Shown here piece after piece: positions 1,223 to 33,816 of a stretch of 64,000 nt of DNA. Below the pieces are notes generated by a model. The model searched no databases. It saw nothing but the letters and a program-made list of their open reading frames with translations, and had not been told where the DNA came from. Position 1 is the stretch's first letter, and each line of letters starts with the position of its first letter. Made by a program: the position numbers and the translations under genes. This DNA comes from a virus, in the IMG/VR virus record IMGVR_UViG_3300033182_000581, positions 94,492 to 158,491 of that record. The stretch is one strand, 5' to 3'.

Positions 1223-1278
1223 TTAACAATTTCTTAACATTAAAGGCTTGGTAATACCAGGCTTTTTTTGTATCTTTA
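1223..1278 (+). promoter_or_regulatory. class I promoter cassette, copy 1 (with embedded hairpin/U-tract)
   Basis: TTAACA-N5-TTAACAT, CTTGG, TATCTTTA; hairpin AAAGGCTTGG-TAATA-CCAGGCTTT followed by T-run. Confidence 0.75.
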
Positions 1279-1300
1279 CTATGTAAAAGAGAGATAAGTT

Positions 1301-1648
1301 ATGAATTATTTAGTTGACCCACAAAGTTTAGTTTTCAACTCTCACCGAATTAATGGTTTCACCAAAATGATTGGTGATGAAAAAATCCACCAATGGGAGT
1401 TGTTGGATATCGCAACTGAAGTTGCTGAAGAATGGACTAACGATTGGCCTGAGGACCAGGGATTCGGTTCTTCAGATATGACCTATATGATTAAGGACTT
1501 CATTGATAATGTGATTACTTCAGTTTATATGAAGAATGGTATGAGTAGTAGTATGTATATGACCAAATTTACTCCTTCTCTCTCAGTAGTTCCTTACTCT
1601 GAAGAGGAGCATCACAATAAGGTTCAACAAATGGAAAGTGGAATTTAA
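1301..1648 (+). CDS. hypothetical protein
   Basis: 115-aa ORF directly behind the cassette; its stop lies inside the next cassette. Confidence 0.75.
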   Translation: MNYLVDPQSLVFNSHRINGFTKMIGDEKIHQWELLDIATEVAEEWTNDWPEDQGFGSSDMTYMIKDFIDNVITSVYMKNGMSSSMYMTKFTPSLSVVPYSEEEHHNKVQQMESGI

Positions 1649-1699
1649 CAATTTAATAACATTAAAATTTGGTTATATCAAAAATAAGTGTTATATTAG
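1645..1699 (+). promoter_or_regulatory. class I promoter cassette, copy 2
   Basis: TTAACA 1645, TAACAT 1657, TTTG 1668, TATATTAG 1692. Confidence 0.75.
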
Positions 1700-1728
1700 T
1701 ACTGTAATTGAGAGTTAAGAGTTATAAA

Positions 1729-2328
1729 ATGAAAAATATGAAAAATATGAAAAATCCAAAGAAATTTAAGTTTGAGTTAGAAGGTGTAATGTTTGAATTA
1801 CCAATCAAATTCCTAAAGAAAGTAGATTGGAATGGTAATCCACTTCCAAAAGCTAAAATCAATATGAACCATGTGGCTGCTGCTAATGTGGTTAAACAAT
1901 ATGTTAAAAAGAAATACCCAAATGTTGTGGTGAGTTCATCATCAGATTCTTTCTCTATGGGTAACTCAGTTAATATTTACATCTCAGATGAGTATGGTAA
2001 CGGAGTTGATGAATCAATTATCAAAGATGTTGACCGATTCGGTTCTCAGTTTGAATATGGTCAGTTCAATGGTATGATTGATATGTACGAACATCACAAC
2101 AAAGATGTACGAACTGATAATGGTACTGAAATCGATTATGGTGTTAAGTACCTTCATGTTCAGAATCGACCAAAGTTCTGTACTGTTCCTGATATTGTTC
2201 GAATGATTAAAGATATGATGGCTGGTAAATATGTTTACGGACCAATCTCTTTAGAGAAAGCTATCGGTGAGGTTAAAGGTTATGGTGGTACTGAAAATAA
2301 CATCAAAAAAGCCCTTCAATTAATTTAA
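1729..2328 (+). CDS. LPD29-like (large polyvalent protein domain) protein, paralog 1
   Basis: KKKYPNVVVSSSSDSFSMGNSVNIY resembles the LPD29 K-FP-VKFSV-S--YSGG-SI-V motif; paralog at 12123. Confidence 0.55.
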   Translation: MKNMKNMKNPKKFKFELEGVMFELPIKFLKKVDWNGNPLPKAKINMNHVAAANVVKQYVKKKYPNVVVSSSSDSFSMGNSVNIYISDEYGNGVDESIIKDVDRFGSQFEYGQFNGMIDMYEHHNKDVRTDNGTEIDYGVKYLHVQNRPKFCTVPDIVRMIKDMMAGKYVYGPISLEKAIGEVKGYGGTENNIKKALQLI

Positions 2329-2379
2329 CAATTAAATAACATTAAAATTTGGAAATTACAATAATATTTCGTATATTAG
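2325..2379 (+). promoter_or_regulatory. class I promoter cassette, copy 3
   Basis: TTAACA 2325, TTTG 2348, TATATTAG 2372. Confidence 0.75.
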
Positions 2380-2397
2380 TATTGTAATAAGAGAGAT

Positions 2398-2751
2398 ATG
2401 AAACAAAAAACTATTTTCAGCGATATTGATGGGACTCTTGTCCATCAAGTACCATTCGAACAAATCGACCCATTCCTTTCAATTGCGCTACCAGGTGTTG
2501 TTGAAACATTCACTCGATTGTTCAAAGAAGGACACCACATCGTTTTAACAACTGCACGACCTGAAAGTTTGCGTGATTTAACTATTCAGGAGATGGATTT
2601 GTTGGGTATTCCATTCCACCAATTGGTGATGGGTATCGGACGTTCTGAACGTATCCTAATCAACAACAAAAGTGTAGAGAATCCATCAGAAGTTCGTGCT
2701 ACTGCGATTGAAGTAGAAAAAGATGGTGGCATCGAAGGTTACGGATTGTAA
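2398..2751 (+). CDS. HAD-superfamily phosphatase (small, PNKP-like)
   Basis: Motif I DIDGTL, motif II LTTAR. Confidence 0.75.
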   Translation: MKQKTIFSDIDGTLVHQVPFEQIDPFLSIALPGVVETFTRLFKEGHHIVLTTARPESLRDLTIQEMDLLGIPFHQLVMGIGRSERILINNKSVENPSEVRATAIEVEKDGGIEGYGL

Positions 2752-3065
2752 TGAAAACGATAGTAGTACATACACCAAAGCGGTGTAGGAAACCTAAGAT
2801 AGATGTATTTGATGACCATATAGATAAGGTTAACAATCCACGCTCTAAAAAATACCTACCCGAAGATACAACCATTCACGCAATGGGTATGGGTGGTGAT
2901 GGGTTGATTGCATACTATAAAGAAAAGTTCTTTGGTATCAAACGAACACCGTTATCTACACCTAAGAAAGTAACTAAGCAAAAGGTTGATAAATCAGAGT
3001 TAAAGAAAGCTTTAAAGAAACAAAAACAATTCCTAAACGGAAAAGTTGATAAATCTTTTTGGTAA
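2751..3065 (+). CDS. hypothetical protein
   Basis: ORF translationally coupled to the upstream gene (TAATG). Confidence 0.65.
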   Translation: MKTIVVHTPKRCRKPKIDVFDDHIDKVNNPRSKKYLPEDTTIHAMGMGGDGLIAYYKEKFFGIKRTPLSTPKKVTKQKVDKSELKKALKKQKQFLNGKVDKSFW

Positions 3066-9465: not shown

Positions 9466-9834
9466 ATGGATTCTATAAAGAAGTATTACGAACTATTTGG
9501 TGATGGTGAAGAAAAATCCATCAGTAGAAAAGATTTCGGTGAAATCCTCAAACAAAAACTCAAAGAAATTGAAGAAGAAAAATCCAATCTATTAGAACAT
9601 ATAATGGAATGGTATCCAGATAACCAATTCATAAAAGCAGATGGGTTAGATGACGCAATCATTGGAGTAGATATCAACGATTTAAGATTGATATATTCAC
9701 AAAAAAAAGTGATGGATATTTTAATTAGTAGAGATGGTATGGATGAAGAAGAAGCACATGAATACTTTATGTTTAAGTTTCATTCAGCATATGTAGGTGA
9801 TAGAACTCCGATTTGGTGTATGGATGAATACTAA
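9466..9834 (+). CDS. conserved phage hypothetical protein
   Basis: KADGLDDAIIG...EEAHEYF...AYVGDRTP, a pattern I recognise as common in large phages. Confidence 0.7.
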   Translation: MDSIKKYYELFGDGEEKSISRKDFGEILKQKLKEIEEEKSNLLEHIMEWYPDNQFIKADGLDDAIIGVDINDLRLIYSQKKVMDILISRDGMDEEEAHEYFMFKFHSAYVGDRTPIWCMDEY

Positions 9835-12044: not shown

Positions 12045-12100
12045 TTAACACAAATTTAACATTAGGGATTTGGATATATGGGGATAATGTGTTATCTTTA
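12045..12100 (+). promoter_or_regulatory. class I promoter cassette, copy 4
   Basis: TTAACA 12045, TTTG 12069, TATCTTTA 12093. Confidence 0.75.
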
Positions 12101-12122
12101 CTATGTAAAAGAGAGATAAGTT

Positions 12123-12695
12123 ATGAAAAACAAGAAAATCAAAATCGAGTTGGGTGGTCAAATGTATGAGTTGAACGCCAAGTGTTTACGAGAAAATACC
12201 TACGGAGCTGGTAAGAACGTAGGAAAATACCTTTACATCAGTCACGCTGATGCTGGGTCTTTGGTGAAACAATTTGTTAAGAAGAATTATCCTAATGTGG
12301 TATGTAAGGTGAGTTCATCCTCTTTTAGTGGTGGTAACTCTCTTGATGTTTATGTCCACGATAAATTAGGTAACCCCATCGCTCAAGACATTTACGACAA
12401 TATTAACCGATTCGCCCACCAATGGGAGTATGGTAAGTTCAACGGAATGTTCGACATCTACGAGAACTATGAGTCCGCCGGAGCGGTGTCTGACAACGGA
12501 ACGACCATCCAAGCCGGTGTTAAGTATGTGAATGTTTACAACCGAGCTAAATTCGGAACGATGGAAGCTATCCTCTACGAAGTAATGGAAGAGGGTCGTG
12601 AGTTCGGTGAGGTCACCAAGTTCTACACCGATTCAACCACCAAAAACCAAGTGGTTCGAGCTCAAAAAGTTCTTTCAGAGTTAGGTAAGATTTAA
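12123..12695 (+). CDS. LPD29-like protein, paralog 2
   Basis: KKNYPNVVCKVSSSSFSGGNSLDVY; YGKFNGMFDIYE and GVKYVNVYNR are shared with 1729..2328. Confidence 0.55.
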   Translation: MKNKKIKIELGGQMYELNAKCLRENTYGAGKNVGKYLYISHADAGSLVKQFVKKNYPNVVCKVSSSSFSGGNSLDVYVHDKLGNPIAQDIYDNINRFAHQWEYGKFNGMFDIYENYESAGAVSDNGTTIQAGVKYVNVYNRAKFGTMEAILYEVMEEGREFGEVTKFYTDSTTKNQVVRAQKVLSELGKI

Positions 12696-12747
12696 CACAA
12701 AGTTAACATTAAAAGTTTGGAACTTTGAGAATTATTCACTACATTTA
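12692..12747 (+). promoter_or_regulatory. class I promoter cassette, copy 5
   Basis: TTAACA 12692, TTTG 12716, TACATTTA 12740. Confidence 0.75.
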
Positions 12748-12769
12748 CTATGTAAAAGAGAGATAAGTT

Positions 12770-12985
12770 ATGAAACAACTAGAAGAATTAGTAAATGATG
12801 GATATGAAGATTTAACTATATCAAAACAAAACTTTATTACATTAATAGAAAAATATGGACATAATATACCGATACTTATCAATAATAAAAAGGTATGGAT
12901 TCACTTTACGGAATCTGATAAAATATTAGTAGAATGTGATATAAGTGATGGAAGTGGTATAGAATTAAATATTGAAGAAATATGA
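12770..12985 (+). CDS. hypothetical protein
   Basis: ORF behind cassette 5. Confidence 0.6.
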   Translation: MKQLEELVNDGYEDLTISKQNFITLIEKYGHNIPILINNKKVWIHFTESDKILVECDISDGSGIELNIEEI

Positions 12986-13719: not shown

Positions 13720-13775
13720 TTAACATAAAGTTAACATTGGAGATTTGGTAGTTTGGGTTATTATTATTATATTAG
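13720..13775 (+). promoter_or_regulatory. class I promoter cassette, copy 6
   Basis: TTAACA 13720, TTTG 13744, TATATTAG 13768. Confidence 0.75.
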
Positions 13776-13794
13776 TAGTGTAATAATGAGAGAT

Positions 13795-15573: not shown

Positions 15574-15628
15574 TTAACAATTTTTTAACATTGGGATTTG
15601 GATATATAAAAAATTATTCGTATATTAG
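15574..15628 (+). promoter_or_regulatory. class I promoter cassette, copy 7
   Basis: TTAACA 15574, TTTG 15597, TATATTAG 15621. Confidence 0.75.
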
Positions 15629-15653
15629 TACTGTAATAAGAGATTAAAACAAT

Positions 15654-20367: not shown

Positions 20368-20423
20368 TTAACAATTATTTAACATTAGAGGTTTGGTTAT
20401 TCCAAACCTTTTTTGTATATTTA
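20368..20423 (+). promoter_or_regulatory. class I promoter cassette, copy 8 (with embedded terminator hairpin)
   Basis: TTAACA 20368; AGGTTTGG-TTATT-CCAAACCT plus T-run; TATATTTA 20416. Confidence 0.75.
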
Positions 20424-20445
20424 CTATGTAATAAAAATGAGAGAT

Positions 20446-21495: not shown

Positions 21496-21496
21496 T

Positions 21497-21715
21497 ATGA
21501 AGTACGACCCAAACAAACCTTTAACAGCCGAGGAAGTAGATAAACTTGGAAAAGATGATTTTGATGCGTTTCTCGAATACTTAGATTCAATGCAGGAATA
21601 CAAACAAAAAAACTTTAAAGAAAAGGTAAGGGCTGCTAAAAAAAAGAAGCACGATATGTTAAAAGAAAGTGGTGTAAAGAATGTTAAAACACATCGTTCT
21701 CAATGGTTCGATTAA
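21497..21715 (+). CDS. hypothetical protein
   Basis: 72-aa ORF. Confidence 0.6.
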   Translation: MKYDPNKPLTAEEVDKLGKDDFDAFLEYLDSMQEYKQKNFKEKVRAAKKKKHDMLKESGVKNVKTHRSQWFD

Positions 21716-21752
21716 ATTTGGAAATTTAAAAAATAATTTGTATATTTGTAAT

Positions 21753-21917
21753 ATGAAAATAACTAAATATGGACACTCTTGGATTTTAATGGTATTGGGT
21801 ATATTATTTACCTCATCCGATTCATTACTATCCTCATTCATTGGTGGTATCTTAATTGGTACATCTGTTTTAATGGCTAGACAATCAGGTATAGAGGATG
21901 CCTCCAAAAATGAGTAA
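21753..21917 (+). CDS. small membrane protein
   Basis: Behind class II promoter at 21717; hydrophobic. Confidence 0.55.
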   Translation: MKITKYGHSWILMVLGILFTSSDSLLSSFIGGILIGTSVLMARQSGIEDASKNE

Positions 21918-22108
21918 TGGGTTATTGGTCAGATAAATGTTTTATGTGTTACTTCGTTGGTACACTTGTTGCGATTGTATCATTATCAACACATAGTATT
22001 GTAAAACAAAATAAAAAAGAGAAACGTTATGAACATAACACAAGAGGGAGAGGACCAGTTTCAGATACGACAAAAACCGCAGGATATGAAAGCAATTTTA
22101 GAATTTAA
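21917..22108 (+). CDS. small membrane protein
   Basis: One TM segment; coupled start. Confidence 0.45.
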   Translation: MGYWSDKCFMCYFVGTLVAIVSLSTHSIVKQNKKEKRYEHNTRGRGPVSDTTKTAGYESNFRI

Positions 22109-22322
22109 TTTACCTGAAGATAATCAGGACTTCAAACTAGCAACCAAAGGTTCATGTTGGTGGCATGTTTGTTGGGAGATGGACCAATGGTTGAGACAAC
22201 AATACAAATATATGTCCGATGATGAATATAGTGCGGATAAGTATAATGCTTATTATGAAGCTAGACAGAAACTCTTTGAGTTGATGCAGGTGAATGGTGT
22301 AAGTTTAGCTGATGTAGAATGA
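22086..22322 (+). CDS. hypothetical protein, duplicate copy A
   Basis: MKAILEFNLPEDNQDFKLATKG...; near-identical to 24750..24986. Confidence 0.75.
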   Translation: MKAILEFNLPEDNQDFKLATKGSCWWHVCWEMDQWLRQQYKYMSDDEYSADKYNAYYEARQKLFELMQVNGVSLADVE

Positions 22323-22636
22323 GAACAATCAAACAATTCATTCGTAGAGTAAAACGTACTTATGCGTTTCTACCCATCATTTGGAAAGGATATGATTGGG
22401 ATTATGGATACGCAATCGAACTATTCAGATACCAATTAGAACGTACTGCTGATTTCTTAGAAAGTGATAAGGCAGTTACAATGGATGCACATCTACACGC
22501 TAAAAAAATCAGAACCGCAATTAGATTGATTGATATGGTTTATGGTGATGAGATGATATCTTTTGAAAGATGGAAAAAGGCTGAAAGAGTACTTTGGAAA
22601 TTTATTTCACATAATATCAAACATTGGTGGGATTAA
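22319..22636 (+). CDS. hypothetical protein
   Basis: 105-aa ORF (DWDYGY...WWD). Confidence 0.7.
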   Translation: MRTIKQFIRRVKRTYAFLPIIWKGYDWDYGYAIELFRYQLERTADFLESDKAVTMDAHLHAKKIRTAIRLIDMVYGDEMISFERWKKAERVLWKFISHNIKHWWD

Positions 22637-22693
22637 ATTTGGATATATAAACTTTGTGTTGTATATTTGTAAAAGTTCTTTGATATTTAAGAA

Positions 22694-22782
22694 GCTCGGG
22701 TGGTGGAATTGGTAGACACGCCGGACTTAAAATCCTGTGGGCAGTAATGCCCGTGCGGGTTCGATTCCCGCTCCGAGTACCA
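22694..22782 (+). tRNA. trnL: tRNA-Leu(TAA)
   Basis: Cloverleaf with GGTAGACAC D-arm, CT-TAA-AA loop, long variable arm, TTCGATT T-loop, encoded CCA. Confidence 0.92.
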
Positions 22783-22843
22783 AGTGGGGAGTTACACAAT
22801 ACGCGTTGGAACTATGTAACTTTAAAATAGAACCCCACAATAT

Positions 22844-22917
22844 GCACCCATAGCTCAATTGGATAGAGCAACGCACTTCTAATGCGTAGGCTACAGGTTC
22901 GACTCCTGTTGGGTGTA
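22844..22917 (+). tRNA. trnR: tRNA-Arg(TCT)
   Basis: GCACCCA/TGGGTGT acceptor, ACGCA-CTTCTAA-TGCGT anticodon arm, TTCGACT T-loop. Confidence 0.93.
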
Positions 22918-22923
22918 CAAAAA

Positions 22924-23090
22924 GTACTTACCACGCTACCCATAAGAACAGCGTCCCAGGGTAAGTCTTTTGCGAGAGAGATAGTGAAGCTGTTAGTTAA
23001 TGGTGGTGTTAAAAGGATGAAAAAGGGTTTAGAGTAATCCGAGCGCAAACAAACCATTAATCAGTAACCCTGAAAGACCCGAAGTCTCTC
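22924..23090 (+). ncRNA. candidate structured RNA(s) in the tRNA-Arg/tRNA-Ser spacer
   Basis: ACTTACC/GGTAAGT enclosing ACGCT/AGCGT; GAGAGA/TCTCTC enclosing TTAATGGT/ACCATTAA. Confidence 0.45.
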
Positions 23091-23096
23091 TTTAAT

Positions 23097-23181
23097 GGAA
23101 GATTGGCAGAGTGGTCGAACGCACTTGACTTGAAATCAAGCGTACAGCAATGTACCGTAGGTTCGAATCCTACATCTTCCG
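23097..23181 (+). tRNA. trnS: tRNA-Ser(TGA)
   Basis: GGAAGAT/ATCTTCC acceptor, CTTGA-CTTGAAA-TCAAG, long variable arm, TTCGAAT. Confidence 0.93.
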
Positions 23182-23220
23182 CAAAGGTTATCGTTCTTTG
23201 ATTTAAAAATAGGAGAAACT

Positions 23221-23649
23221 ATGGAAATAACATCATTTATTTTAGGTGTATGTGCGGCTATCGCATTGTTGATAGTTGTGGGTACGTTTGTGAATTATAT
23301 GAGTTTTAAATTACTCAAAAAGCAAATGGATGATATCAGTAGAACACTACATGATATTGAGCGTGATATCTACGATAATGTAGATGAGTTAAATAAAGAA
23401 CTTCACAACGAAGTTGATGAGTTAAATAAAGAACTTCACAACGAACTTGATGAGGTTTACAAAACAATCGATTCCAGATTTGATAAGTTTGAGAATCGAA
23501 TGAATCGTGATATCTACGATAATGTAGATGAGTTAAATAAAGAACTTCACAACGAAGTTGATGAGTTACACAACGAACTTGATGAGGTTTACAAAACAAT
23601 CGATTCCAGATTTGATAAGTTTGAGAATCAAATCAATCAAAACAAATAA
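23221..23649 (+). CDS. membrane-anchored 11-residue-repeat coiled-coil protein
   Basis: N-terminal TM helix; DELNKELHNEV repeats; AGGAG RBS. Confidence 0.75.
   Translation: MEITSFILGVCAAIALLIVVGTFVNYMSFKLLKKQMDDISRTLHDIERDIYDNVDELNKELHNEVDELNKELHNELDEVYKTIDSRFDKFENRMNRDIYDNVDELNKELHNEVDELHNELDEVYKTIDSRFDKFENQINQNK
23362..23629 (+). repeat. internal tandem duplication (period 144 bp) containing 33-bp subunits
   Basis: 23362-23497 recurs at 23506-23629, identical except a 12-bp deletion. Confidence 0.9.
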
Positions 23650-23677
23650 TTAATTAACCCTAAAGAATGATAACCTT

Positions 23678-23759
23678 CGGGATGTGGTGAAATTGGTAGA
23701 CACGCTGGTTTTAGGCACCAGTGCTTCACGGCTTGTGGGTTCGAGTCCCTCCATCCCGA
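23678..23759 (+). tRNA. trnL: tRNA-Leu(TAG)
   Basis: CGGGATG/CATCCCG acceptor, CTGGT-TTTAGGC-ACCAG, variable arm, TTCGAGT. Confidence 0.9.
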
Positions 23760-23824
23760 CTTTAGAAAAAAAATTCGAAAATATATTTGGAAGTTTGAAA
23801 AAACTTTTGTATATTTGTATTCAA

Positions 23825-24091
23825 ATGAAATGGGATAGTGTAAATATAACCGATAAGATTCATTACTTGAAAAAGTTAATGGAGAATACTGATAGTGTTG
23901 ATATCGGTGATATGTATATTGTTCAAGCCCTAATTACAGGTTCCCTAAACACAAGAGATGCTGATGATGATTATGGATTCAAAATCCAACCACATCACAT
24001 TGAGTTTATGAGAAAGTTATGGAATGTTGCTATTGAGAATCAGCACGATAATTCCGTTATTAATAAAATCAAACAAGAAATTAAATCATAA
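23825..24091 (+). CDS. hypothetical protein
   Basis: ATG after the class II promoter at 23786; the track start (23684) lies inside a tRNA. Confidence 0.65.
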   Translation: MKWDSVNITDKIHYLKKLMENTDSVDIGDMYIVQALITGSLNTRDADDDYGFKIQPHHIEFMRKLWNVAIENQHDNSVINKIKQEIKS

Positions 24092-24432
24092 TGGATTACA
24101 AATCAATACATAAACTGATGGAAATTCAGTACCTTAAAGGCAGGTTAGATGAGTTGTACAAAGGATATGTTCCTAACAGTAATTCATCTAATAATCGATA
24201 TGTAGATTGTCGTATCTCTAAGTATGAGGATAAGTTGAAAGAGATAGATGAGATTGCGTACCATTTGTATGAAGTAGAACGTACCAATGTTAAATTCTCT
24301 AAGGATAAATCTAAAAGAGATATGAAGCAACTCTTATCCGAAATAATGGATGTTATGAATACAACTCCATTGAATCCAGATGTTTCAACTCTTATGGATA
24401 AGATTAAATTACAAATTCTTAAATATGACTAG
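24091..24432 (+). CDS. hypothetical protein
   Basis: Coupled ORF. Confidence 0.65.
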   Translation: MDYKSIHKLMEIQYLKGRLDELYKGYVPNSNSSNNRYVDCRISKYEDKLKEIDEIAYHLYEVERTNVKFSKDKSKRDMKQLLSEIMDVMNTTPLNPDVSTLMDKIKLQILKYD

Positions 24433-24583
24433 CGAAGAAGAAATTGAAGAGATTCTATATGAAGCATCCGCATATGGACTTCGTACTGAAGTGATGGATT
24501 CGGCAAACAAAGAGATGGAAGAAAATCCAAACCTTTCTAAGGTCGACGCATATCAACGGGCATATTATGAATGGATTAAATGA
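24425..24583 (+). CDS. hypothetical protein
   Basis: MTSEEEIEEILYEASAYGLR... Confidence 0.6.
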   Translation: MTSEEEIEEILYEASAYGLRTEVMDSANKEMEENPNLSKVDAYQRAYYEWIK

Positions 24584-24753
24584 AACCAACTACGAAGGAA
24601 GTAGAACAGGCAATTGATAGAACATGCATTCACTATGATTCAATCGTAGAGAATGTTGTACGTCATAGTGTATATAAGTTAGACAAGAACTTTGCTAAAC
24701 ACATTGATGATACATTAGAAGCATTAACAAAAGCACACCAATCGATATTATGA
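24580..24753 (+). CDS. hypothetical protein (57 aa)
   Basis: Read by hand; ATGA overlaps at both ends. Confidence 0.5.
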   Translation: MKPTTKEVEQAIDRTCIHYDSIVENVVRHSVYKLDKNFAKHIDDTLEALTKAHQSIL

Positions 24754-24986
24754 AAGCAATTTTAGAATTTAATCTACCCGAAGATAACCAAGAGTTCAAA
24801 CTTGCAACCAAAGGTTCGGATTGGTGGCATGTTTGTTGGGAGATGGACCAATGGTTGAGAGCACAATACAAGTATATGCCTGATGAAGAATTTACGCAAG
24901 ATAGATATGATGCGTATGTTGAGGCCAGAGAAAAACTATTTGAATTGATGAGTGAGAATGGTGTAAGTTTAAATGATGTACAATGA
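24750..24986 (+). CDS. hypothetical protein, duplicate copy B
   Basis: Paralog of 22086..22322. Confidence 0.75.
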   Translation: MKAILEFNLPEDNQEFKLATKGSDWWHVCWEMDQWLRAQYKYMPDEEFTQDRYDAYVEAREKLFELMSENGVSLNDVQ

Positions 24987-25231
24987 TAGAACAAGAACTT
25001 ATTGATTTAGGATTTGAGAAGTTTGAAGAAACTGCTGAGAACAGTGGGTATCCTAACGATTGGTATTACTATACAATTGATATAGGTGATATCTCTTTCA
25101 TTACAAATGATAGCGATGATGCAGAAAAGAATGGGTGGAAGGTTTATCTCTTTGATTATGAATCAATGGAAATCGCCGACTCCACTCAAGCACGAACCCT
25201 AATTGAAATCATAAAGAGTAACACCAAATGA
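24983..25231 (+). CDS. hypothetical protein
   Basis: Coupled ORF. Confidence 0.65.
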   Translation: MIEQELIDLGFEKFEETAENSGYPNDWYYYTIDIGDISFITNDSDDAEKNGWKVYLFDYESMEIADSTQARTLIEIIKSNTK

Positions 25232-25599
25232 AGTTAGCAGTAATCGCACATGATGGTAAGAAAGCGGATATGGTATCGTTCGTAATGAAACGATTACCAT
25301 TCTTCAAACGTAAAGATGTTGAACTTGTGGGAACTGGAACTACTGGCACTATGATTATTCATGCTGGCCTAAAAGTAGAGAGAGTGGCATCGGGTCCAAT
25401 GGGTGGTGATGCGGAGATTGGTGCGATGGTAACCAGAGGTGAGATTGATGGAGTAATCTTCTTTAGAGACCCGTTAGATAAACACCCACACGATGTAGAT
25501 ATCTCAATGTTGATGCGATTGTGTGATGTACACGAAGTACCACTTGCTACCAACTATCGTTCAGCACATATTATGATTAAGTATTTTGAAAACAAATGA
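25228..25599 (+). CDS. mgsA: methylglyoxal synthase
   Basis: LAVIAHDGKK, GTGTTG, SGPMGGDAEIG, FFRDPL, HPHDVD, RLCDVHEVPLATN. Confidence 0.95.
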   Translation: MKLAVIAHDGKKADMVSFVMKRLPFFKRKDVELVGTGTTGTMIIHAGLKVERVASGPMGGDAEIGAMVTRGEIDGVIFFRDPLDKHPHDVDISMLMRLCDVHEVPLATNYRSAHIMIKYFENK

Positions 25600-25808
25600 A
25601 TAAGCTCGATAAACAATATCAAGAACTACTAATGACCATACTTGAGTATGGAGTAGATAAATCGGATAGGACTGGTACAGGTACCAAGTCCATCTTTGGT
25701 TACACCATCCGACATAATATGGAAGATGGATTTCCCCTACTAACCACAAAGAAGATAGCAGTCAAAACTATGATGACTGAGTTGAAGTGGTTCTTAGAGG
25801 GAGATTAA
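25596..25808 (+). pseudogene. thyA: thymidylate synthase N-terminal fragment (70 aa)
   Basis: QYQELL..I...DRTGTGT.SIFG...FPLLTTKK...ELKWFLEGD then stop; the catalytic Cys region is absent from this window. Confidence 0.85.
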
Positions 25809-25811
25809 CAT

Positions 25812-25867
25812 TTAACAATTTCTTAACATTGGGGGTTTGGAAAAATCCCCTTTTTTTGTTATCTTTA
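25812..25867 (+). promoter_or_regulatory. class I promoter cassette, copy 9 (with hairpin/U-tract)
   Basis: TTAACA 25812 (extra copy at 25805), GGGG..CCCC plus T-run, TATCTTTA 25860. Confidence 0.75.
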
Positions 25868-25896
25868 CTATGTAAAAGAGATAAAGATTAAATAGT

Positions 25897-26094
25897 ATGA
25901 AAAATTATCAAGCAATTTTGTTAGTGTTAGTTGGATTCGGATTGAGTATCGGAACTATGTTCGGTAAGGTTCAATCCTTAATACATTTTGCGGGTGTTAT
26001 CAATGAAATGGGATTCGCGTTTTTGTCATTTATGATAGGTATAATCGGATTGTGTTCGATTAACTACACTAAAATTTACAAAGCACTGATTTAA
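25897..26094 (+). CDS. small two-TM membrane protein
   Basis: Hydrophobic 65 aa behind cassette 9. Confidence 0.6.
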   Translation: MKNYQAILLVLVGFGLSIGTMFGKVQSLIHFAGVINEMGFAFLSFMIGIIGLCSINYTKIYKALI

Positions 26095-26118
26095 GGTGTT
26101 GATAACTTGTTGATAACT

Positions 26119-26174
26119 TTAACAATTATTTAACATAGAACATTTGGATATATCAGAAATATTCACTACTTTAG
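26119..26174 (+). promoter_or_regulatory. class I promoter cassette, copy 10
   Basis: TTAACA 26119, TTTG 26143, TACTTTAG 26167; preceded by two TGTTGATAA boxes. Confidence 0.75.
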
Positions 26175-26184
26175 TACTGTAATA

Positions 26185-28365
26185 ATGAGAAAGGATAAAC
26201 ATATGAGAGATAACACAAAATATTCTTCGTACTGGTTACGTGGTGATTTGTTTGATGATGACTCTAATGATGTTGTTGATGCAGTTGAGAAGAAACAATC
26301 GAATCTTCTCGCTCTCGCTTCATATAAACGAGCTATCTCAAACTTTGTTAACATTGTAACCAATGAGAACATCAAAGTAATGTTCGACCAACGTGGTGAT
26401 AATTCCTACACCGATGGTAAGACGGTTACCATTTCCGCTAAGATGGATGATAAGGAATTTGACCCGACAGTTGGTTTGGCGTTGCATGAGGGTTCTCACA
26501 TTAAGTTAACTGATTTTAGTTCCCTTCAACAACTAAACAATCACAACTTTCCACATCCATTAGATTATGATTACATTTCTTCTTTGGAAGAAAAACACAA
26601 TATGGGATATGATAGTGTTCGTAATTGGATTGCTGGTGTTGTTAAGGATTTGTTGAATGTGATTGAAGATAGACGTATTGATTATTACATCTACTCTACC
26701 TCACCTGGTTACAAAGGTTACTACCACGCAATGTACGATAAGTACTTCAACGCTAAGATTATCGATAAAGGACTTCAATCCTCTGAGTATCGTACTGAGG
26801 ATTGGGAATCTTATATGTTCCGTATCATCAACATCACCAATGAGAATCGTGATTTGGATGCACTTCCAATGTTACGAAAAGTTTGGGAGTTGATTGATTT
26901 GAAAAACATCAACCGACTTCAGAATACTCAACAGGCGTTTGAGTTGGCTTGTGAGGTTTTCAAAATGGTAGAAGATTCACTTCCAAAATCTCAACAACCT
27001 GAGCAGGGTGATGGTAATGGTAATGGTGATTCTGATAACAATGAACAACAACCGGGTGAAGGTGCTGGTGGCGGTGGTGATAACTCCGAAACCAATGGTA
27101 CTGATAATACTGAAGGGCCTGAGAATGATGGTCAATCTAAGCAAGATTCCAATGGTACTGATGATACCAAAGGTGATGCAGAAGGAGATGATGTAAAGAG
27201 TGGTCGTTCTTCTTACAATCCCAATGGTGCTGGTGGTGATGGTTCTAATAACCAACCTACTGATAACAAAGTTGATGGTGGTGAAGGCCCACTTTCAGAC
27301 CGACAAAAGAAACAATTAGATAACGCTATTAATAAACAAAAGAAGTTTCAAAATGGTGATATCACAAAGAAGAAAGTTGGTAAGAACGAAAATCAAAAGT
27401 TAGAAACTCTATCTAAGGCTGGTATCGATGAGAAGCTGGCAGGTAAGGATTACCAATCAGGTCGTTATTGGAGAAATGATAAAGCAACATCTGTTGTGAT
27501 TGTTCGTAACTTCACTAAGGCATTGGTTGATTCAGATACCATTGATATGTTATCTTCTTACTCTTGGTACACTGACCGTAATCAGGAGGCCATCAACAAA
27601 GGTATTCAGATTGGTACTATGTTGGGTAAGCGTTTGAAGATTCGTTCTGAAGAACGTTCGTTGATTACTCCGCGAATGAAGAGTGGTCGTATCTCTGGTC
27701 GTTTGTTACATGAGTTGGGTATGGGTAATACACAAATCTTTGACCAGACTGTAATCAACAAACACAAACCGGCATTGATTCACATCTCCATTGATGCAAG
27801 TACTTCGATGGGTGATGGTAAGTGGACTAACTCACAAATTGCGGCAGTTGCAATCGCTAAGGCCGCTTCGATGACTAATAATCTTGATGTGGTTATCTCA
27901 TACCGAGCCATTCAAGAAGGTGGTCGTTCACATAAATCAGTACAACCTTTGATGTTCATTGCTTACGATTCTCGTAAGGATAAGTTCACTAAGATTCAAC
28001 AATTGTTCAAATACATTCGGACGTGTGGTACTACTCCAGAAGGTTTGTGTTTTGAATCAATTTTAAATGAGATTACCAAAACCAATGGTGGTGTTGATTC
28101 TTACTTCATCAACTTCTCAGATGGATGGCCAGGATTCTCTAACTCTGATATTGAGTATAGTGGACAGGCTGCTATTGACCACACCGCGAATCAGGTTAAG
28201 AAGATGAGAATGGCTGGAGTTAAGGTTCTATCTTACTTCATCGAAGAAGGTTACTATGGTGGGGCTATTGATAACTTCCAAAAGATGTATGGTAAATCTG
28301 CTGAGAAGATTGATGTTACATCACTCATCCCATTGACACGAACTTTAAATAAAATGTTTGAATAA
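26185..28365 (+). CDS. VWA-domain protein (CobT/MoxR-partner-like) with HExxH region
   Basis: LHEGSH, IEDRRID, G/N/D-rich linker, C-terminal VWA: IDASTSM, TPEG, FSDG. Confidence 0.8.
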   Translation: MRKDKHMRDNTKYSSYWLRGDLFDDDSNDVVDAVEKKQSNLLALASYKRAISNFVNIVTNENIKVMFDQRGDNSYTDGKTVTISAKMDDKEFDPTVGLALHEGSHIKLTDFSSLQQLNNHNFPHPLDYDYISSLEEKHNMGYDSVRNWIAGVVKDLLNVIEDRRIDYYIYSTSPGYKGYYHAMYDKYFNAKIIDKGLQSSEYRTEDWESYMFRIINITNENRDLDALPMLRKVWELIDLKNINRLQNTQQAFELACEVFKMVEDSLPKSQQPEQGDGNGNGDSDNNEQQPGEGAGGGGDNSETNGTDNTEGPENDGQSKQDSNGTDDTKGDAEGDDVKSGRSSYNPNGAGGDGSNNQPTDNKVDGGEGPLSDRQKKQLDNAINKQKKFQNGDITKKKVGKNENQKLETLSKAGIDEKLAGKDYQSGRYWRNDKATSVVIVRNFTKALVDSDTIDMLSSYSWYTDRNQEAINKGIQIGTMLGKRLKIRSEERSLITPRMKSGRISGRLLHELGMGNTQIFDQTVINKHKPALIHISIDASTSMGDGKWTNSQIAAVAIAKAASMTNNLDVVISYRAIQEGGRSHKSVQPLMFIAYDSRKDKFTKIQQLFKYIRTCGTTPEGLCFESILNEITKTNGGVDSYFINFSDGWPGFSNSDIEYSGQAAIDHTANQVKKMRMAGVKVLSYFIEEGYYGGAIDNFQKMYGKSAEKIDVTSLIPLTRTLNKMFE

Positions 28366-28559
28366 TGATACTAAATTTAGAACGATTAAATTTGGAATAC
28401 ATCTATTGGACTGTTGATAATGGAGAATGTCGAAACTCAGATGATTTGAGATTCGGCCAGTTTCTCCACAACAAATACCAATTGGATGGATTATCGGATG
28501 TGTTTTATGTAGAAAACGCAACATCTGCTTACGAAACTTTGTTAAAAGATTTAACATAA
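28365..28559 (+). CDS. hypothetical protein
   Basis: DLRFGQFL motif. Confidence 0.6.
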   Translation: MILNLERLNLEYIYWTVDNGECRNSDDLRFGQFLHNKYQLDGLSDVFYVENATSAYETLLKDLT

Positions 28560-28606
28560 ACTTAACATTAAAAGTTTGGATATATCAGAAATAAGTGGTA
28601 CTTTAG
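28551..28606 (+). promoter_or_regulatory. class I promoter cassette, copy 11
   Basis: TTAACA 28551, TTTG 28575, TACTTTAG 28599. Confidence 0.75.
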
Positions 28607-28625
28607 TACTGTAAGATTGAGAGAT

Positions 28626-28844
28626 ATGAGAACGACAATTGAAGTAAAAAAAGTTTTGGATTACGTTAACAACCAACTTGCTCGTACTGATGAGTATTGT
28701 GATGATAAGTTTAAGGCTGGTATGTGTACGATGATTGAACGAGTGTTGTATGATACTAATCAGTATAATGGTTATACTCCATTGAATGATGCGAATGTAG
28801 GTGAGGTTGGTTACTACAATCGATTTTACCACATGAAAAGTTAA
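28626..28844 (+). CDS. hypothetical protein
   Basis: Lies between cassettes 11 and 12. Confidence 0.65.
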   Translation: MRTTIEVKKVLDYVNNQLARTDEYCDDKFKAGMCTMIERVLYDTNQYNGYTPLNDANVGEVGYYNRFYHMKS

Positions 28845-28896
28845 CAATTTGATAACATTAAAAATTTGGAGTTGTGAACCTAAATCACTATCTTTA
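28841..28896 (+). promoter_or_regulatory. class I promoter cassette, copy 12
   Basis: TTAACA 28841, TTTG 28865, TATCTTTA 28889. Confidence 0.75.
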
Positions 28897-28934
28897 CAAA
28901 GTAATAAAAGTTAAAAAATAAACAATAATTAGAT

Positions 28935-30203
28935 ATGGCAAAAGCACAAAGATTTGTATTCCTCAAAGTTGTTCGTAATGAGAACAAAGAGTTGATTTTG
29001 GTAGACACCAATGGTGTTGAGTTTTTAGTTCCTCAGATAAATGAGAAAGGAACTTCACTTTATAAACGAGCCGTTGCATCGGCTAACAATCCTTCAAAGT
29101 ATTGTTTCAAAGCTCGTGTTAGTGGTAACCTTACTAATGGTTCGGTTGAATTCGGACGTGTTCCGGCTGAGAAGTTTAATGGGGCTGAACCTGTTACAAA
29201 CTTCAATCAACCAAATGGTGGTTTGGAAGCATTCAAAATGACTGTAACTCCTACACCATCGGAAGCTGTTGAGAAACCAATGGAAGAAGATTTCCTAAAG
29301 TTCATTCACTCTGAGGCTAATGGTTTGAAACCAAAGATGTTGTTTATGAGTGAACTGAAATGGAAGTATCTGATTCGTAACATTCTTCGTGGTAAGAACA
29401 TTATGATGACTGGCCCGGCCGGTTGTGGTAAGACCATGGCGGCTAAGGCGGCTGCAAATTCCATTGAAGGTTACAATACCGAAATCTTCAATTTGGGTTC
29501 AACGCAAGACCCCCGAGCTACTCTGATTGGGAATACTCAGTTCGATACTAAGAAAGGTACGGTCTTTAACCCATCACCTTTCGTTAAAGCAATTCAAACT
29601 CCAAACACTGTGATTGTGTTGGATGAGATTAGCCGGGCTCACCCTGAGGCTCACAACATTCTGATGACTGTGTTGGATGCTGGACAACGTTACCTACGTT
29701 TGGATGAGGCTGCAGATTCACCTGTTGTGAAGGTTGCTGAAGGCGTTTCCTTCATCGCCTCCGCTAATATCGGTAATGAATATACCGCAACTCGTCAACT
29801 TGACCGTGCGATTGTTGACCGATTCACAATCATTGAGATGGATACTCTTACTACTGAAGAGGAATCTAAACTACTTCAAATGATGTACCCATCGGTTGAT
29901 ATGGCACTTATCAAATCAGTTGCAGAGATTACTTCAATGACCCGTTCTGAGGTTAAGAAAGAAACTCCACAACTTACGAACTCACTATCGACTCGTACAG
30001 CGGTTGAGATTGGTTCTCTACTATACGATGGGTTCTCATTGGCTGAGGCTGCTGAAATCACTATCTATCCTCTCTTCGATGACGCGGGTGGGGCTCAATC
30101 AGAACGTACTTACATTCGACAGTTCGTTCAGAAGTTCGTTGGTTCTACTGAAGAAGAAAATCTCTTCAATACTGAAACCGAAGATTTAAATAACCCTTTC
30201 TAA
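28935..30203 (+). CDS. MoxR/CbbQ/CobS-type AAA+ ATPase
   Basis: Walker A GPAGCGKT, Walker B IVLDEISR, ASANIG, LDRAIVDRF, STR. Confidence 0.9.
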   Translation: MAKAQRFVFLKVVRNENKELILVDTNGVEFLVPQINEKGTSLYKRAVASANNPSKYCFKARVSGNLTNGSVEFGRVPAEKFNGAEPVTNFNQPNGGLEAFKMTVTPTPSEAVEKPMEEDFLKFIHSEANGLKPKMLFMSELKWKYLIRNILRGKNIMMTGPAGCGKTMAAKAAANSIEGYNTEIFNLGSTQDPRATLIGNTQFDTKKGTVFNPSPFVKAIQTPNTVIVLDEISRAHPEAHNILMTVLDAGQRYLRLDEAADSPVVKVAEGVSFIASANIGNEYTATRQLDRAIVDRFTIIEMDTLTTEEESKLLQMMYPSVDMALIKSVAEITSMTRSEVKKETPQLTNSLSTRTAVEIGSLLYDGFSLAEAAEITIYPLFDDAGGAQSERTYIRQFVQKFVGSTEEENLFNTETEDLNNPF

Positions 30204-30229
30204 TTGTTTAGTGTTTAACTAATGGGTAG

Positions 30230-30255
30230 ACCCCACCACTTCGGTGGGGTTTATT
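30230..30255 (+). terminator. intrinsic terminator
   Basis: ACCCCACC-ACTTC-GGTGGGGT followed by TTATT. Confidence 0.75.
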
Positions 30256-30316
30256 CTAAATTAAATTTGGAAAACAATTTTATTTTTTGTATATTTATCA
30301 AACAACAATAAAAGAT

Positions 30317-31821: not shown

Positions 31822-32112
31822 ATGAAAAAATACAACGGAAAGCCAAGAGGTAGAGTAAATCACGGTGGTGCAACAAACGAAAAAGATAGAGAGAGGTTAC
31901 GCAAGTTAGGAAAGAATTATAACTCAATTGATTTTTTGATGAGTGATAATCTTAATGAATCTAACTACACCGATAAAAGTCAACCCATTGGCACTTTAGA
32001 AGTTGGAAATGTTTCTGTTGATTTGACTTGGTCAGAATGTTCTAAGATTATGGAAACATTAGAAAACGCACAACTTACTCACAAACAAAAAATTCGATTA
32101 GGATTATTTTAA
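31822..32112 (+). CDS. hypothetical protein
   Basis: After ATATTTAT at 31783. Confidence 0.6.
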   Translation: MKKYNGKPRGRVNHGGATNEKDRERLRKLGKNYNSIDFLMSDNLNESNYTDKSQPIGTLEVGNVSVDLTWSECSKIMETLENAQLTHKQKIRLGLF

Positions 32113-32115
32113 TGA

Positions 32116-32541
32116 ATGGAAACATCAGAATTCTTTAAACAACTTGGATTAGGAGACCCGGATATGGAGAAAGCCCGAGAATGGGTTTCCTATTCCAAAT
32201 TTGAAGAAGCAGTTCCTGATATTCTTACACTATCTGAGTTTGTTGATACTGTACTTAAAAAATCTGTTGTGGATAACGCAAAACCACATCAATGGTTTTC
32301 TGAGAGATATATGGTTACTAAATACATATCATCTACTCAACCTGCGAATGATGAGTATATCAAAAAATTAGATACTAAGATTTCACATCTAAAGGAATCA
32401 ATTCCAACCGAACCAAACTATGAACATATACATAGATTCATTGAGATTTTATCTACTGAAGTTCATACAAAGCGAAATATACTTCCTAAAGAAGTTTTGG
32501 AATATTTGAATGAATTGTACAAAGGAAAGGGAAAACGATGA
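32116..32541 (+). CDS. hypothetical protein
   Basis: 141-aa ORF. Confidence 0.65.
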   Translation: METSEFFKQLGLGDPDMEKAREWVSYSKFEEAVPDILTLSEFVDTVLKKSVVDNAKPHQWFSERYMVTKYISSTQPANDEYIKKLDTKISHLKESIPTEPNYEHIHRFIEILSTEVHTKRNILPKEVLEYLNELYKGKGKR

Positions 32542-32550
32542 TATTTATAA

Positions 32551-32745
32551 ATGATGGGTATAGAACAAATTAAAGAACCATATAAGAGTAGTATACTTGA
32601 AATACTAAACTCTGATTCTGATTCCGATAGGGTATTTCAGAAACTAAAATTATATATGGTATCCGAGTCATACTTTAAAGAAGTTATAGACGAACCAACG
32701 TGGTTAGCCTATGAGATTCACAAACAATTCAATAAGAGGAAATGA
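32551..32745 (+). CDS. hypothetical protein
   Basis: 64-aa ORF. Confidence 0.5.
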   Translation: MMGIEQIKEPYKSSILEILNSDSDSDRVFQKLKLYMVSESYFKEVIDEPTWLAYEIHKQFNKRK

Positions 32746-33125
32746 TTATGACAAGTACTGAATATTGGGATGAGAGTGAATTCAACTTCTTTAATCAATT
32801 GGATGATGTAGATAAACTACTATACATCTATGATTTAATGATTGGTGAATTCGTATATGAATACAATGGTGAAGATGTATCCCTTCCCATCTTTGAATTT
32901 GAATTTGAAGAAGAAGAAAAAATCAGACAAGATGTTTTAGTATCATTTACAGAGGATGGTGATATTAAGTTCGAAGGTGGTGATTTGGATGTATTAGAAA
33001 ACGCTGCAAGATTTATGGTTACAAATGGATTATTACTTACAAATCGTAAAGTTTCATTTATACATGAAACTGTGATTCTTACTTATACTTTATTAGGTGA
33101 AGGGTTACCAATCTCAATGAACTGA
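32742..33125 (+). CDS. acidic hypothetical protein
   Basis: 127-aa ORF. Confidence 0.6.
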   Translation: MIMTSTEYWDESEFNFFNQLDDVDKLLYIYDLMIGEFVYEYNGEDVSLPIFEFEFEEEEKIRQDVLVSFTEDGDIKFEGGDLDVLENAARFMVTNGLLLTNRKVSFIHETVILTYTLLGEGLPISMN

Positions 33126-33224
33126 CAGATTGTCAGTACTATATGACATAATTTCCTATTTTATAATTTGGTACATAAGTTGAAATATACTGAGTGTATG
33201 TTTTAAAAATTAAAAGGAGATAAT

Positions 33225-33575
33225 ATGTTTATTACAAACCGAACAATTGACAGATTATTTGATGATGTTATGAAAATGAACCACCGTAATGTATGGAACT
33301 CATTGTATGATAATATGAAAGTAGAAGATGATGAACTTATCATGCAGTTTGATGTACCTGGCTTTTCGAAGAAAGATTTTAAAATCAAAGTAGAAGATTA
33401 TGTATTAACTATTGAAGGTGAGACTGATACTCGTACTTTTAATAAACAATACAAATTGAATAAAGATTGGGATACATCTAAAGTATCTGCTAAGGTTGAG
33501 AATGGTGTATTAACAATCACTACACCTAAGTTAGAAGAAAAGAAATCAAAGGTTATTGAAGTAGTTGTTAAGTAG
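33225..33575 (+). CDS. small heat-shock protein (Hsp20/alpha-crystallin)
   Basis: DVPGFSKKDFKIKVED..LTIEG...AKVENGVLTITTPK; AGGAG RBS. Confidence 0.92.
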   Translation: MFITNRTIDRLFDDVMKMNHRNVWNSLYDNMKVEDDELIMQFDVPGFSKKDFKIKVEDYVLTIEGETDTRTFNKQYKLNKDWDTSKVSAKVENGVLTITTPKLEEKKSKVIEVVVK

Positions 33576-33775
33576 TGTTTTGTAAAGAAGTTATAGATAG
33601 GTCGGGTAAACTCTATATAGTACTCAGAAAGATTCGGATTGACCACAATCCCATCGTTCAGGCTTGGAGAGAACATCTTAGAGCTGATATTGTTTTAAAG
33701 AAAGAACCATTCTATTATTTTTGTGAAGAGATTATAGATGTTGAACCGATAGATGAAAATTTAACACAAACTTAA
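33575..33775 (+). CDS. hypothetical protein
   Basis: GTG start coupled to the hsp20 stop. Confidence 0.55.
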   Translation: MFCKEVIDRSGKLYIVLRKIRIDHNPIVQAWREHLRADIVLKKEPFYYFCEEIIDVEPIDENLTQT

Positions 33776-33816
33776 CATAGGGGAGTTGGATAACTCCCCT
33801 TTTTTTATTATCTTAG
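33761..33816 (+). promoter_or_regulatory. class I promoter cassette, copy 13 (with terminator hairpin)
   Basis: TTAACA 33761; AGGGGAGTT-GGAT-AACTCCCCT plus T-run; TATCTTAG 33809. Confidence 0.72.

Follow-up and report, generated by a model that had tools for sequence, protein, structure and literature searches.

The DNA analysed here (the window) is a stretch of 64,000 nucleotides, bases 94492-158491 of a 169,380-bp IMG/VR virus record with a CheckV completeness of 93%. Its source is an uncultured marine Bacteroidota phage of about 169 kb, T4-like, and the window is coded almost wholly on the + strand. The subject of this report is a promoter cassette scattered among the phage genes, in which a direct repeat, TTAACA-N5-(T/A)TAACAT, stands upstream of a host-type promoter with an altered -7 box. 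It is proposed below, with modest confidence, that the cassettes are sigma-A promoters boosted by the host regulator PhoB in response to phosphate status. Coordinates preceded by w, and those of the feature list, are positions in the window; those marked "genome" are positions in the whole record.

A promoter cassette of fixed geometry

A first-pass annotation of the window had placed thirteen cassettes in it, and the exact repeat was found at every one of these coordinates (13/13), always on the + strand. The pattern under which they had been described, TTAACA-N5-TAACAT, is one base short and gives no match at those places. The true second unit of the repeat is WTAACAT, which leads to an 11-bp period, and N5 followed by WTAACAT matches all thirteen. 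When one mismatch was allowed, the window contained 14 matches, against a shuffle mean of 1.42 (maximum 5), the sole additional one being a near-match inside a coding region.

The elements follow each other in a constant order: TTAACA, 5 nt, (T/A)TAACAT, 5-7 mostly purine nucleotides, TTGG (-33), 19 nt, and the -7 box TAnnTT(AG/TA), on whose 3' side come 2-4 nt, GTAA (contained in TGTAA) and a short A/G-rich leader, with the first ATG 3-32 nt further on. TTGG is separated from the -7 box by 19 nt in 13 of the 13 window cassettes, and the end of the repeat by 29-30 nt in all of them. Counted as TTTG plus 20 nt, the -33 element and its spacer are canonical in the thirteen window copies, while the -7 box deviates at its last two bases. 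A sigma-70-like -35/-10 pair, or an ECF-type (extracytoplasmic function) promoter, within the repeat itself was also considered and was rejected by eye, nothing being conserved 16-17 nt past either half-site.

In the complete genome there are 17 cassettes, the thirteen of the window and four others (genome 38298, 38720, 55234 and 67716), and none on the - strand. The repeat is exact in 16 of them and carries one mismatch in the remaining one (TTAACG, genome 38298); the next-closest sites of the genome have at least two mismatches, and none of those is followed by the rest of the cassette. All 17 are intergenic and lie between 38.3 and 128.3 kb of the genome, its non-structural part, and the first half-site often provides the stop codon of the preceding gene. 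In four cassettes (w1223, w20368, w25812 and w33761), a strong hairpin of -11.7 to -16.3 kcal/mol with a T-run is placed between the repeat and the -7 box, and the -33 TTGG belongs to the stem, whereas the other 13 of the 17 fold at -3.3 kcal/mol or weaker. The thirteen window cassettes and the genes behind them are the following:

Cassette 1, 1223..1286, + strand: repeat 1223-1240, -33 TTGG 1248-1251, -7 box TATCTTTA 1271-1278, then TGTAA; terminator hairpin and T-run between repeat and -7 box; downstream, a 115-aa open reading frame (ORF), 1301-1648.
Cassette 2, 1645..1707, + strand: repeat 1645-1662, its TAA being the stop codon of the preceding gene, -33 1669-1672, -7 box TATATTAG 1692-1699; downstream, a 199-aa ORF, 1729-2328.
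Cassette 3, 2325..2387, + strand: repeat 2325-2342, -33 2349-2352, -7 box TATATTAG 2372-2379; downstream, a HAD-phosphatase-like 117-aa ORF, 2398-2751.
Cassette 4, 12045..12108, + strand: repeat 12045-12062, -33 12070-12073, -7 box TATCTTTA 12093-12100; DnaA-box-like 11-bp repeats adjoin its upstream side; downstream, a 190-aa ORF, 12123-12695.
Cassette 5, 12692..12755, + strand: repeat 12692-12709, -33 12717-12720, -7 box TACATTTA 12740-12747; downstream, a 71-aa ORF, 12770-12985.
Cassette 6, 13720..13783, + strand: repeat 13720-13737, -33 13745-13748, -7 box TATATTAG 13768-13775; downstream, a 96-aa ORF, 13786-14076.
Cassette 7, 15574..15636, + strand: repeat 15574-15591, -33 15598-15601, -7 box TATATTAG 15621-15628; leads a gene row that includes a calcineurin-like phosphoesterase, 17363-18043.
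Cassette 8, 20368..20431, + strand: repeat 20368-20385, -33 20393-20396, -7 box TATATTTA 20416-20423; terminator hairpin and T-run; downstream, a 79-aa ORF, 20437-20676.
Cassette 9, 25812..25875, + strand: repeat 25812-25829, -33 25837-25840, -7 box TATCTTTA 25860-25867; an extra TTAACAT 5' of the repeat ends a truncated thyA; terminator hairpin and T-run; downstream, a 65-aa ORF.
Cassette 10, 26119..26182, + strand: repeat 26119-26136, -33 26144-26147, -7 box TACTTTAG 26167-26174; downstream, a CobT-like 726-aa gene (w26185-28365); an orthologous copy is found in relatives down to 44-47% CobT identity.
Cassette 11, 28551..28614, + strand: repeat 28551-28568, -33 28576-28579, -7 box TACTTTAG 28599-28606; downstream, a 72-aa ORF, the cassette and ORF forming a unit that is present or absent among relatives.
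Cassette 12, 28841..28904, + strand: repeat 28841-28858, -33 28866-28869, -7 box TATCTTTA 28889-28896; downstream, a MoxR/CobS-like AAA+ ATPase, 28935-30203; its orthologous copy is conserved throughout the clade.
Cassette 13, 33761..33824, + strand: repeat 33761-33778, -33 33786-33789, -7 box TATCTTAG 33809-33816; terminator hairpin and T-run; leads a short ORF and UvdE, 33985-34887.

A cassette also leads the gene row with a family-B DNA polymerase, which lies outside the window. Many of the genes driven by cassettes are small ORFs without an assigned function, and neither pstS nor phoA was noticed among the annotated ones.

The Bacteroidota sigma-A promoter consensus consists of a -33 TTTG, a spacer of about 19-21 nt and a -7 TAnnTTTG. 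Promoters of this canonical kind also exist in the phage: 21 genome sites match TTTG-N20-TATATTTG, of which about three are intragenic and possibly spurious and about 18 are convincing. The first-pass annotation had located eight of these promoters correctly, with the repeat at none, and the contrast that it drew between two promoter classes turns out to be stronger than it had claimed. The repeat is present at 0 of the 21 canonical-pattern sites, where its best match has at least 3 mismatches in 12, and a -7 box ended in TTTG is present in 0 of the 17 cassettes. Counted over the clade, 94 unique cassettes have -7 boxes that end in TTTA (49), TTAG (35), TTTG (9) and TTAA (1). Taking into account that the -33 element and the spacer are the same in both classes, it is suggested that the same holoenzyme reads both.

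The two classes were also compared at their 3' ends. At many canonical promoters (w3094, w56642, genome 47051, 65418, 68182 and 92291) the ATG is only 3-7 nt past TATATTTG, so that translation probably takes place on mRNAs with no leader or almost none; the genes driven by cassettes have a leader of 10-30 nt, often with AAGAGAGATA.

Conservation and rearrangement among related phages

Relatives were gathered by a protein search with the CobT-like protein (w26185-28365), which gave 35 IMG/VR loci; the clade is present in samples of marine, lagoon or aquaculture origin. The exact repeat, on the gene strand only, was found in all relatives down to about 47% protein identity, and the more distant ones keep the same architecture with the half-sites TTAACG and TTAATA. 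Orthologous cassettes stand before cobT and the AAA gene in relatives with as little as 44-47% CobT identity. Four other whole related records contain 11, 12, 8 and 5 cassettes, with none on the other strand and no match to the control pattern, and cassettes are absent from one more distant record of 147 kb. The information-rich columns are the half-sites, TTGG, TA..TT and GTAA, while the 5-nt spacer inside the repeat varies. Conservation of this kind indicates that purifying selection acts on sequence and spacing, and that recent copying alone does not account for the likeness of the copies. The distinct, activator-type class with a non-consensus -7 box which the first-pass annotation had postulated is upheld.

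The order cassette-cobT-cassette-AAA ATPase is conserved throughout, although closer relatives gain or lack units formed by a cassette and a small ORF. The arrangement in this phage is [C]-o65-[C]-cobT-o64-[C]-o72-[C]-AAA, where [C] is a cassette, against [C]-cobT-[C]-AAA in the relatives. In public metagenomes, DNA contigs from relatives join cassette to cassette (for example, 25843 to 28598, 15590 to 28598 and 28568 to 20411), a result to be taken with caution due to their short sides and low likeness. Another trace of rearrangement is that of thyA. At w25596-25808 only the first 70 codons of this gene are found, 77% identical to the full gene that a relative has at that place (L016:8554-9609), and the stop falls in the extra TTAACAT adjoining cassette 9. 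A 3' remnant of 13 codons (HPTIKAPLSN*) lies 12 kb upstream, at w13225-13263, behind an unrelated ORF, and the same remnant appears at another locus (L013, near 9560-9600). The only other Thymidylat_synt match of the genome is sub-threshold (E = 1.8e-5), in a 232-aa protein at genome 52205-52903. The best reading of these rearrangements is that the cassettes would also serve as recombination borders for gene modules, in a manner similar to the promoter-early stem-loop (PeSL) cassettes known from T4-type phages (PMC2839356, PMC4122927). Since the copies share 60-90 bp of near-identical sequence, they could act as sites of homologous exchange through which units of cassette and ORF are gained or lost.

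No close cultured relative came out of searches for near and distant DNA likeness, or of protein comparisons with GenBank phages. One related phage contig was binned with a metagenome-assembled genome (MAG) of Schleiferiaceae, which is only a weak hint to the host.

Two cassettes are adjoined on their upstream side by further direct repeats with an 11-bp period, which keep the phase of the TTAACA repeats: TGTGGATAT/TGTGGAAAA at cassette 4 (w12024-12044) and two copies of TGTTGATAACT at cassette 10 (w26097-26118). In distant relatives (L026-L036), TGTGGATAAGTTGTGGATAAAT, with perfect DnaA-box words, is located just 5' of the cassettes of cobT and the AAA gene. The DNA beside the repeat of the cassette may be bound by a second factor, perhaps DnaA.

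The same repeat before phosphate-uptake genes of Bacteroidia

A search for the cassette pattern (repeat, TTGG and TAnnTT) in one genome per species, covering 185,579 prokaryote species, returned 58 stretches, about 40 of them in Bacteroidota. A few are contigs of related phages binned into MAGs, and most are cellular promoters with the canonical TAnnTTTG. Phosphate transporters are remarkably frequent among the genes behind these matches, with PHO4/Pit in five Cytophagales genomes and in three other lineages, and a Na/Pi cotransporter with a PhoU domain.

The association was examined at 30 pstS loci taken from 251 Bacteroidia genomes, the repeat being scored when it occurred in forward orientation, with two mismatches at most, within 250 nt upstream. 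It has to be noted that the tally of PstS (155 of 251 genomes) includes two genomes flagged as unpublished (G193 and G274), and that no locus used comes from either. The repeat is present upstream of pstS in 10 of 29 scorable loci and upstream of pgk in 0 of 30 from the same class (Fisher p = 3e-4), a comparison across Bacteroidia. The pgk loci replaced a control based on the reversed pattern; ACAATT recurs inside TTAACAATT, and that control thus lacks independence from the motif. The repeat is also found before the Porin_O_P gene that leads porin-pstS operons, and before 4-5 of 30 DUF47-PitA operons. In these cellular promoters the end of the repeat is 8, 19 or 30 nt from the -7 box, that is, in helical phase, compared with 29-30 nt in the phage, and arrays of three half-sites occur. 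This identity between the motif of the phage and that of host phosphate-uptake promoters is the strongest single result of the analysis, specific in orientation, phase and gene class, and it survives a matched control.

A related sequence is already known in cyanobacteria, in which the Pho box, the binding site of PhoB-type regulators, has been experimentally defined as tandem repeats of the 8-bp CTTAACCT (two or three copies, recognised by SphR) with a 3-bp linker (PMC1906773). A clear similarity to this CTTAACCT is shown by the half-site TTAAC(A). The Bacteroidia motif also shares with classical Pho boxes its direct repeats, its 11-bp period, its specific orientation and its phase with the core promoter, and the Bacteroidota host copies that end 8 nt before the -7 box can be compared with the Escherichia coli box, located 10 bp before the -10 box (PMC1906773). 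Unlike these classical boxes, the phage copies are two helical turns further upstream. Considering its occurrence at host phosphate-uptake genes and its likeness to the cyanobacterial box, TTAAYA-N5-TTAACA is very likely the PhoB site (Pho box) of Bacteroidia. Full-text searches of the literature library consulted found no published description of a Pho-box consensus for this class.

Autoregulation of the best Flavobacteriaceae PhoB-like regulator by the TTAACA motif was looked for and not found. In these genomes (L233-L239) a repeat GTTACC-N5-GTTATT lies about 75-100 nt before the regulator gene, which is followed by a gene for a 347-aa kinase; on the other strand this repeat reads ATAACA...GGTAAC, a TAACA-type word in reverse orientation. 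In gut and rumen Bacteroidales (L070, L071, L075, L092 and L098) a longer shared block, ATAAATAACTnTTTCnnAAAnCTTAACAnnnnCTTAACAT, is followed by TTTGG and TAccTTTG. It stands before unrelated genes in different Prevotella/Bacteroidales genomes and has the look of a separate promoter module, repeated or mobile.

Which factor reads the cassettes

Tandem sites separated by one helical turn had been attributed in the first-pass annotation to an OmpR/PhoB-type regulator, and the presence of the same repeat before Bacteroidota phosphate-uptake genes agrees with this attribution. It had left the choice between a phage and a host factor undecided. A host factor is now a serious candidate, while the phage encodes no recognisable OmpR-type domain: even with E = 1 as the limit, its genome yields no Trans_reg_C, Sigma70_r2 or MotA_activ match (no search was aimed at AsiA), and therefore any OmpR-family protein binding the repeat must be that of the host. 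A Pfam scan of 117 small ORFs showed no DNA-binding family among the best 25 of 64 families. A sigma-like (gp55-like) gene at w38179-38895 was considered and discarded, having no Pfam support and only a chance-level match (E = 0.035). Through a targeted scan, a 73-aa protein with a resolvase-type helix-turn-helix (HTH; HTH_38, E = 7e-6, and HTH_7) was detected at genome 51967-52188 (L044:15967-16185), encoded in a canonical-promoter operon between a MazG-like gene and the gene with the weak thymidylate-synthase-like match. No other candidate for a phage factor binding the cassettes was found.

The following mechanism is proposed. The cassette would be a host-type sigma-A promoter (-33 TTTGG, 19-nt spacer) with a weakened -7 box (TAnnTTAG or TAnnTTTA), and would carry a near-consensus Bacteroidia Pho box, two TTAACA half-sites 11 bp apart, two helical turns above the normal position of such a box. 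Under phosphate starvation of the host, phosphorylated PhoB (OmpR family) would occupy both half-sites, at about -61 to -44 and on the helix face that the box also takes in host Pho promoters, recruiting or stabilising RNA polymerase where the -7 box is too weak alone. If the start site is placed at the conserved TGTAA, as the consensus geometry leads us to infer, the half-sites are at about -58 and -47. Such an arrangement is class-I-like and, combined with the weakened -7 box, fits an activator-dependent promoter. Some 17 transcription units would thus be turned up by the phosphate status of the host, comprising the DNA-polymerase gene row, the CobT-like/MoxR-like pair, UvdE, two phosphoesterase-type genes and many small ORFs, so that about one third of the phage early-region transcription units would probably be tied to PhoB, the phosphate-starvation regulator of the host. 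In the four cassettes with a hairpin, incoming transcripts would be terminated and the downstream genes would depend on the cassette promoter alone, whereas those behind the 13 cassettes without a terminator would also be reachable by read-through from upstream canonical promoters.

Several observations weigh against control by host PhoB. The host box usually abuts the -7 box at 8 nt, replacing the -33 element, whereas the phage box is 29-30 nt away with an intact TTTGG in between, and the distal position at 30 nt appears in only a few host cases (L169 and L180). A lytic phage would commit itself heavily by having 17 promoters depend on phosphate starvation. A clear PstS was found in only 5 of 41 sampled Flavobacteriaceae genomes, and the operon of the best PhoB-like regulator of this family carries the different 11-bp-period repeat described above. 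Moreover, many cellular matches precede genes without an obvious phosphate link, including a TetR gene (in four Capnocytophaga species), ComM/YifB and metK. Capnocytophaga sputigena (G002, L109-L132) has 14 copies of TTAACA-N5-TTAACA, mostly at genes of unassigned or unrelated function, against 2 of the control pattern. (One of its copies is the one before the TetR gene, one is near dnaA, and one is near a PHO4 gene, in the opposite orientation.) These matches would be expected if the repeats were bound by a host regulator of the OmpR family other than PhoB, or by a general host factor, in which case the signal could be, for instance, envelope stress or another nutrient stress. In the same direction, every sampled Flavobacteriaceae genome encodes two to six full-length PhoB-like (OmpR-family) regulators, and pit genes are not classical PhoB targets in several organisms. 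Such a regulator is nevertheless rather improbable, given that pstS is the hallmark target of PhoB in every system studied, that the motif is found there in at least a third of the sampled Bacteroidia and in none of the 30 controls, and that it resembles a Pho box defined by experiment.

It could also be thought that the cassettes form a temporal, middle-type class read by a phage DNA-binding protein made from the canonical promoters, the likeness to the Pho box being either coincidence or mimicry, by which PhoB would be competed with or displaced. The uniformity of the phage repeats, far nearer to one consensus than the host sites, as is usual in phage temporal classes, and the existence of the 73-aa HTH protein speak for this possibility. 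Homologues of the latter (54% identity) were found in two relatives with cassettes, the most complete ones, and are absent from the record without them, a co-occurrence that also counts against PhoB; it concerns three records, and the cassette-free one is, in addition, the most distant. An OmpR-type winged helix, MotA or sigma region 2 is not recognisable in the genome, and a phage factor would leave unexplained why the same motif appears, in the same orientation and helical phase, at host pstS, pit and porin promoters. We therefore consider it unlikely. Still less is expected of a reading that sees in the cassette above all a PeSL-like promoter-terminator module, mobile and recombinogenic, with the repeat as a constitutive UP-like element or a hitch-hiker without conditional regulation. 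The terminators of four cassettes, the units that come and go between relatives, the contigs that join cassette to cassette and the thyA gene cut at a cassette are all in line with it. Recombination, in contrast, requires homology and not an 11-bp-phased repeat whose phase agrees with that of the -7 box. The half-sites stay constant whereas their 5-nt spacers vary, orthologous copies keep them across deep divergence, and the counterpart in hosts shows specificity for phosphate-uptake genes and does not occur at pgk promoters. This gene specificity is also the reason why an UP-element was rejected, and we regard a role limited to recombination as very unlikely.

The nearest precedent for control of phage genes by host PhoB is found in cyanophages, from which Pho-box control has been known so far (pstS and phoA of P-SSM2; S-PM2d, PMC10976474). 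In S-PM2d, host PhoB binds phage promoters that include the one of the DNA polymerase gene (PMC10976474), and here a cassette leads the row with the family-B DNA polymerase. In both cases TTAAC-type tandem repeats with an 11-bp period precede genes of a lytic, marine, T4-like phage, the evidence in the present one coming from sequence. Unlike in cyanophages, the host phylum is Bacteroidota, with its -33/-7 promoters, and 17 near-perfect boxes of fixed geometry take the place of a handful of degenerate predicted ones; each of them has an intact -33 element on its downstream side, goes together with a -7 box that is systematically weakened, and belongs to a repeated cassette of 60-90 bp. This Pho-box control would be joined here with PeSL-like behaviour. 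Like PeSL, the cassettes are short, repeated promoter modules set among small, variable ORFs in the plastic parts of a large genome of T4-like type, and are points of insertion, deletion and exchange between relatives. Unlike PeSL, which are strong constitutive early promoters, they contain a terminator hairpin in only 4 of 17 copies, and have a transcription-factor site and a non-consensus core; furthermore, some copies are stably orthologous across deep divergence.

The first-pass annotation had compared the cassettes with T4 middle promoters and had called them early or middle. In both systems an activator box is joined to a downstream promoter element of the host type, and a second class exists next to the consensus host-type promoters. 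The T4 MotA box, however, takes the place of the -35 element, at -30, and depends on phage MotA and on a sigma-70 remodelled by AsiA, whereas here the box, at about -61 to -44, is upstream of an intact -33 element and matches a host regulon, and no MotA homologue was found. The data do not support membership in that class. Nor do they support the label early or middle, and the evidence favours a signal of phosphate status over a developmental switch.

A wider proposal can be made for the clade: a non-structural block of about 17 units, including the DNA-polymerase row and the CobT/MoxR-like pair, would be placed under host PhoB by means of consensus Pho boxes with a deliberately weakened -7 box, so that phage development would be tuned by phosphate beyond the scale of cyanophages, and the Bacteroidia Pho box would be defined for the first time (TTAAYA-N5-TTAACA, 8, 19 or 30 nt before the -7 box). 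This proposal is more tentative, and we hold it a little more doubtful than probable. Large parts of the surface ocean are limited by phosphate, and Bacteroidota have a major part in degrading the organic matter derived from blooms. If the proposal is true, infection dynamics, burst size and auxiliary metabolism would depend on the nutrient regime in a way predictable from sequence. A testable consensus would permit the prediction of Pho regulons across the class, and the pairing of an activator box with a defective -7 box could offer a design for expression tools that respond to phosphate in Bacteroidota. Also, the idea of promoter cassettes as recombination borders, put forward for PeSL, would be extended beyond the T4-like phages of enterobacteria and vibrios.

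One seawater metatranscriptome (X20) contains contigs of a relative, which fall inside cassette-driven genes (20448-20621, 26320-26707, 28951-30306 and 34676-34872) and also inside genes of canonical promoters (18571-19428), none of them bridging a cassette. Contigs of this type cannot show transcript starts or a response to phosphate, and the RNA library may contain DNA; they are compatible with boosting by host PhoB and are not evidence for it. In the same data, and in metagenome contigs, by far the deepest stretch is w22694-23760, where the canonical promoter at 22638 precedes four tRNA genes (Leu-TAA, Arg-TCT, Ser-TGA and Leu-TAG), presumably owing to cross-matches with cellular tRNAs.

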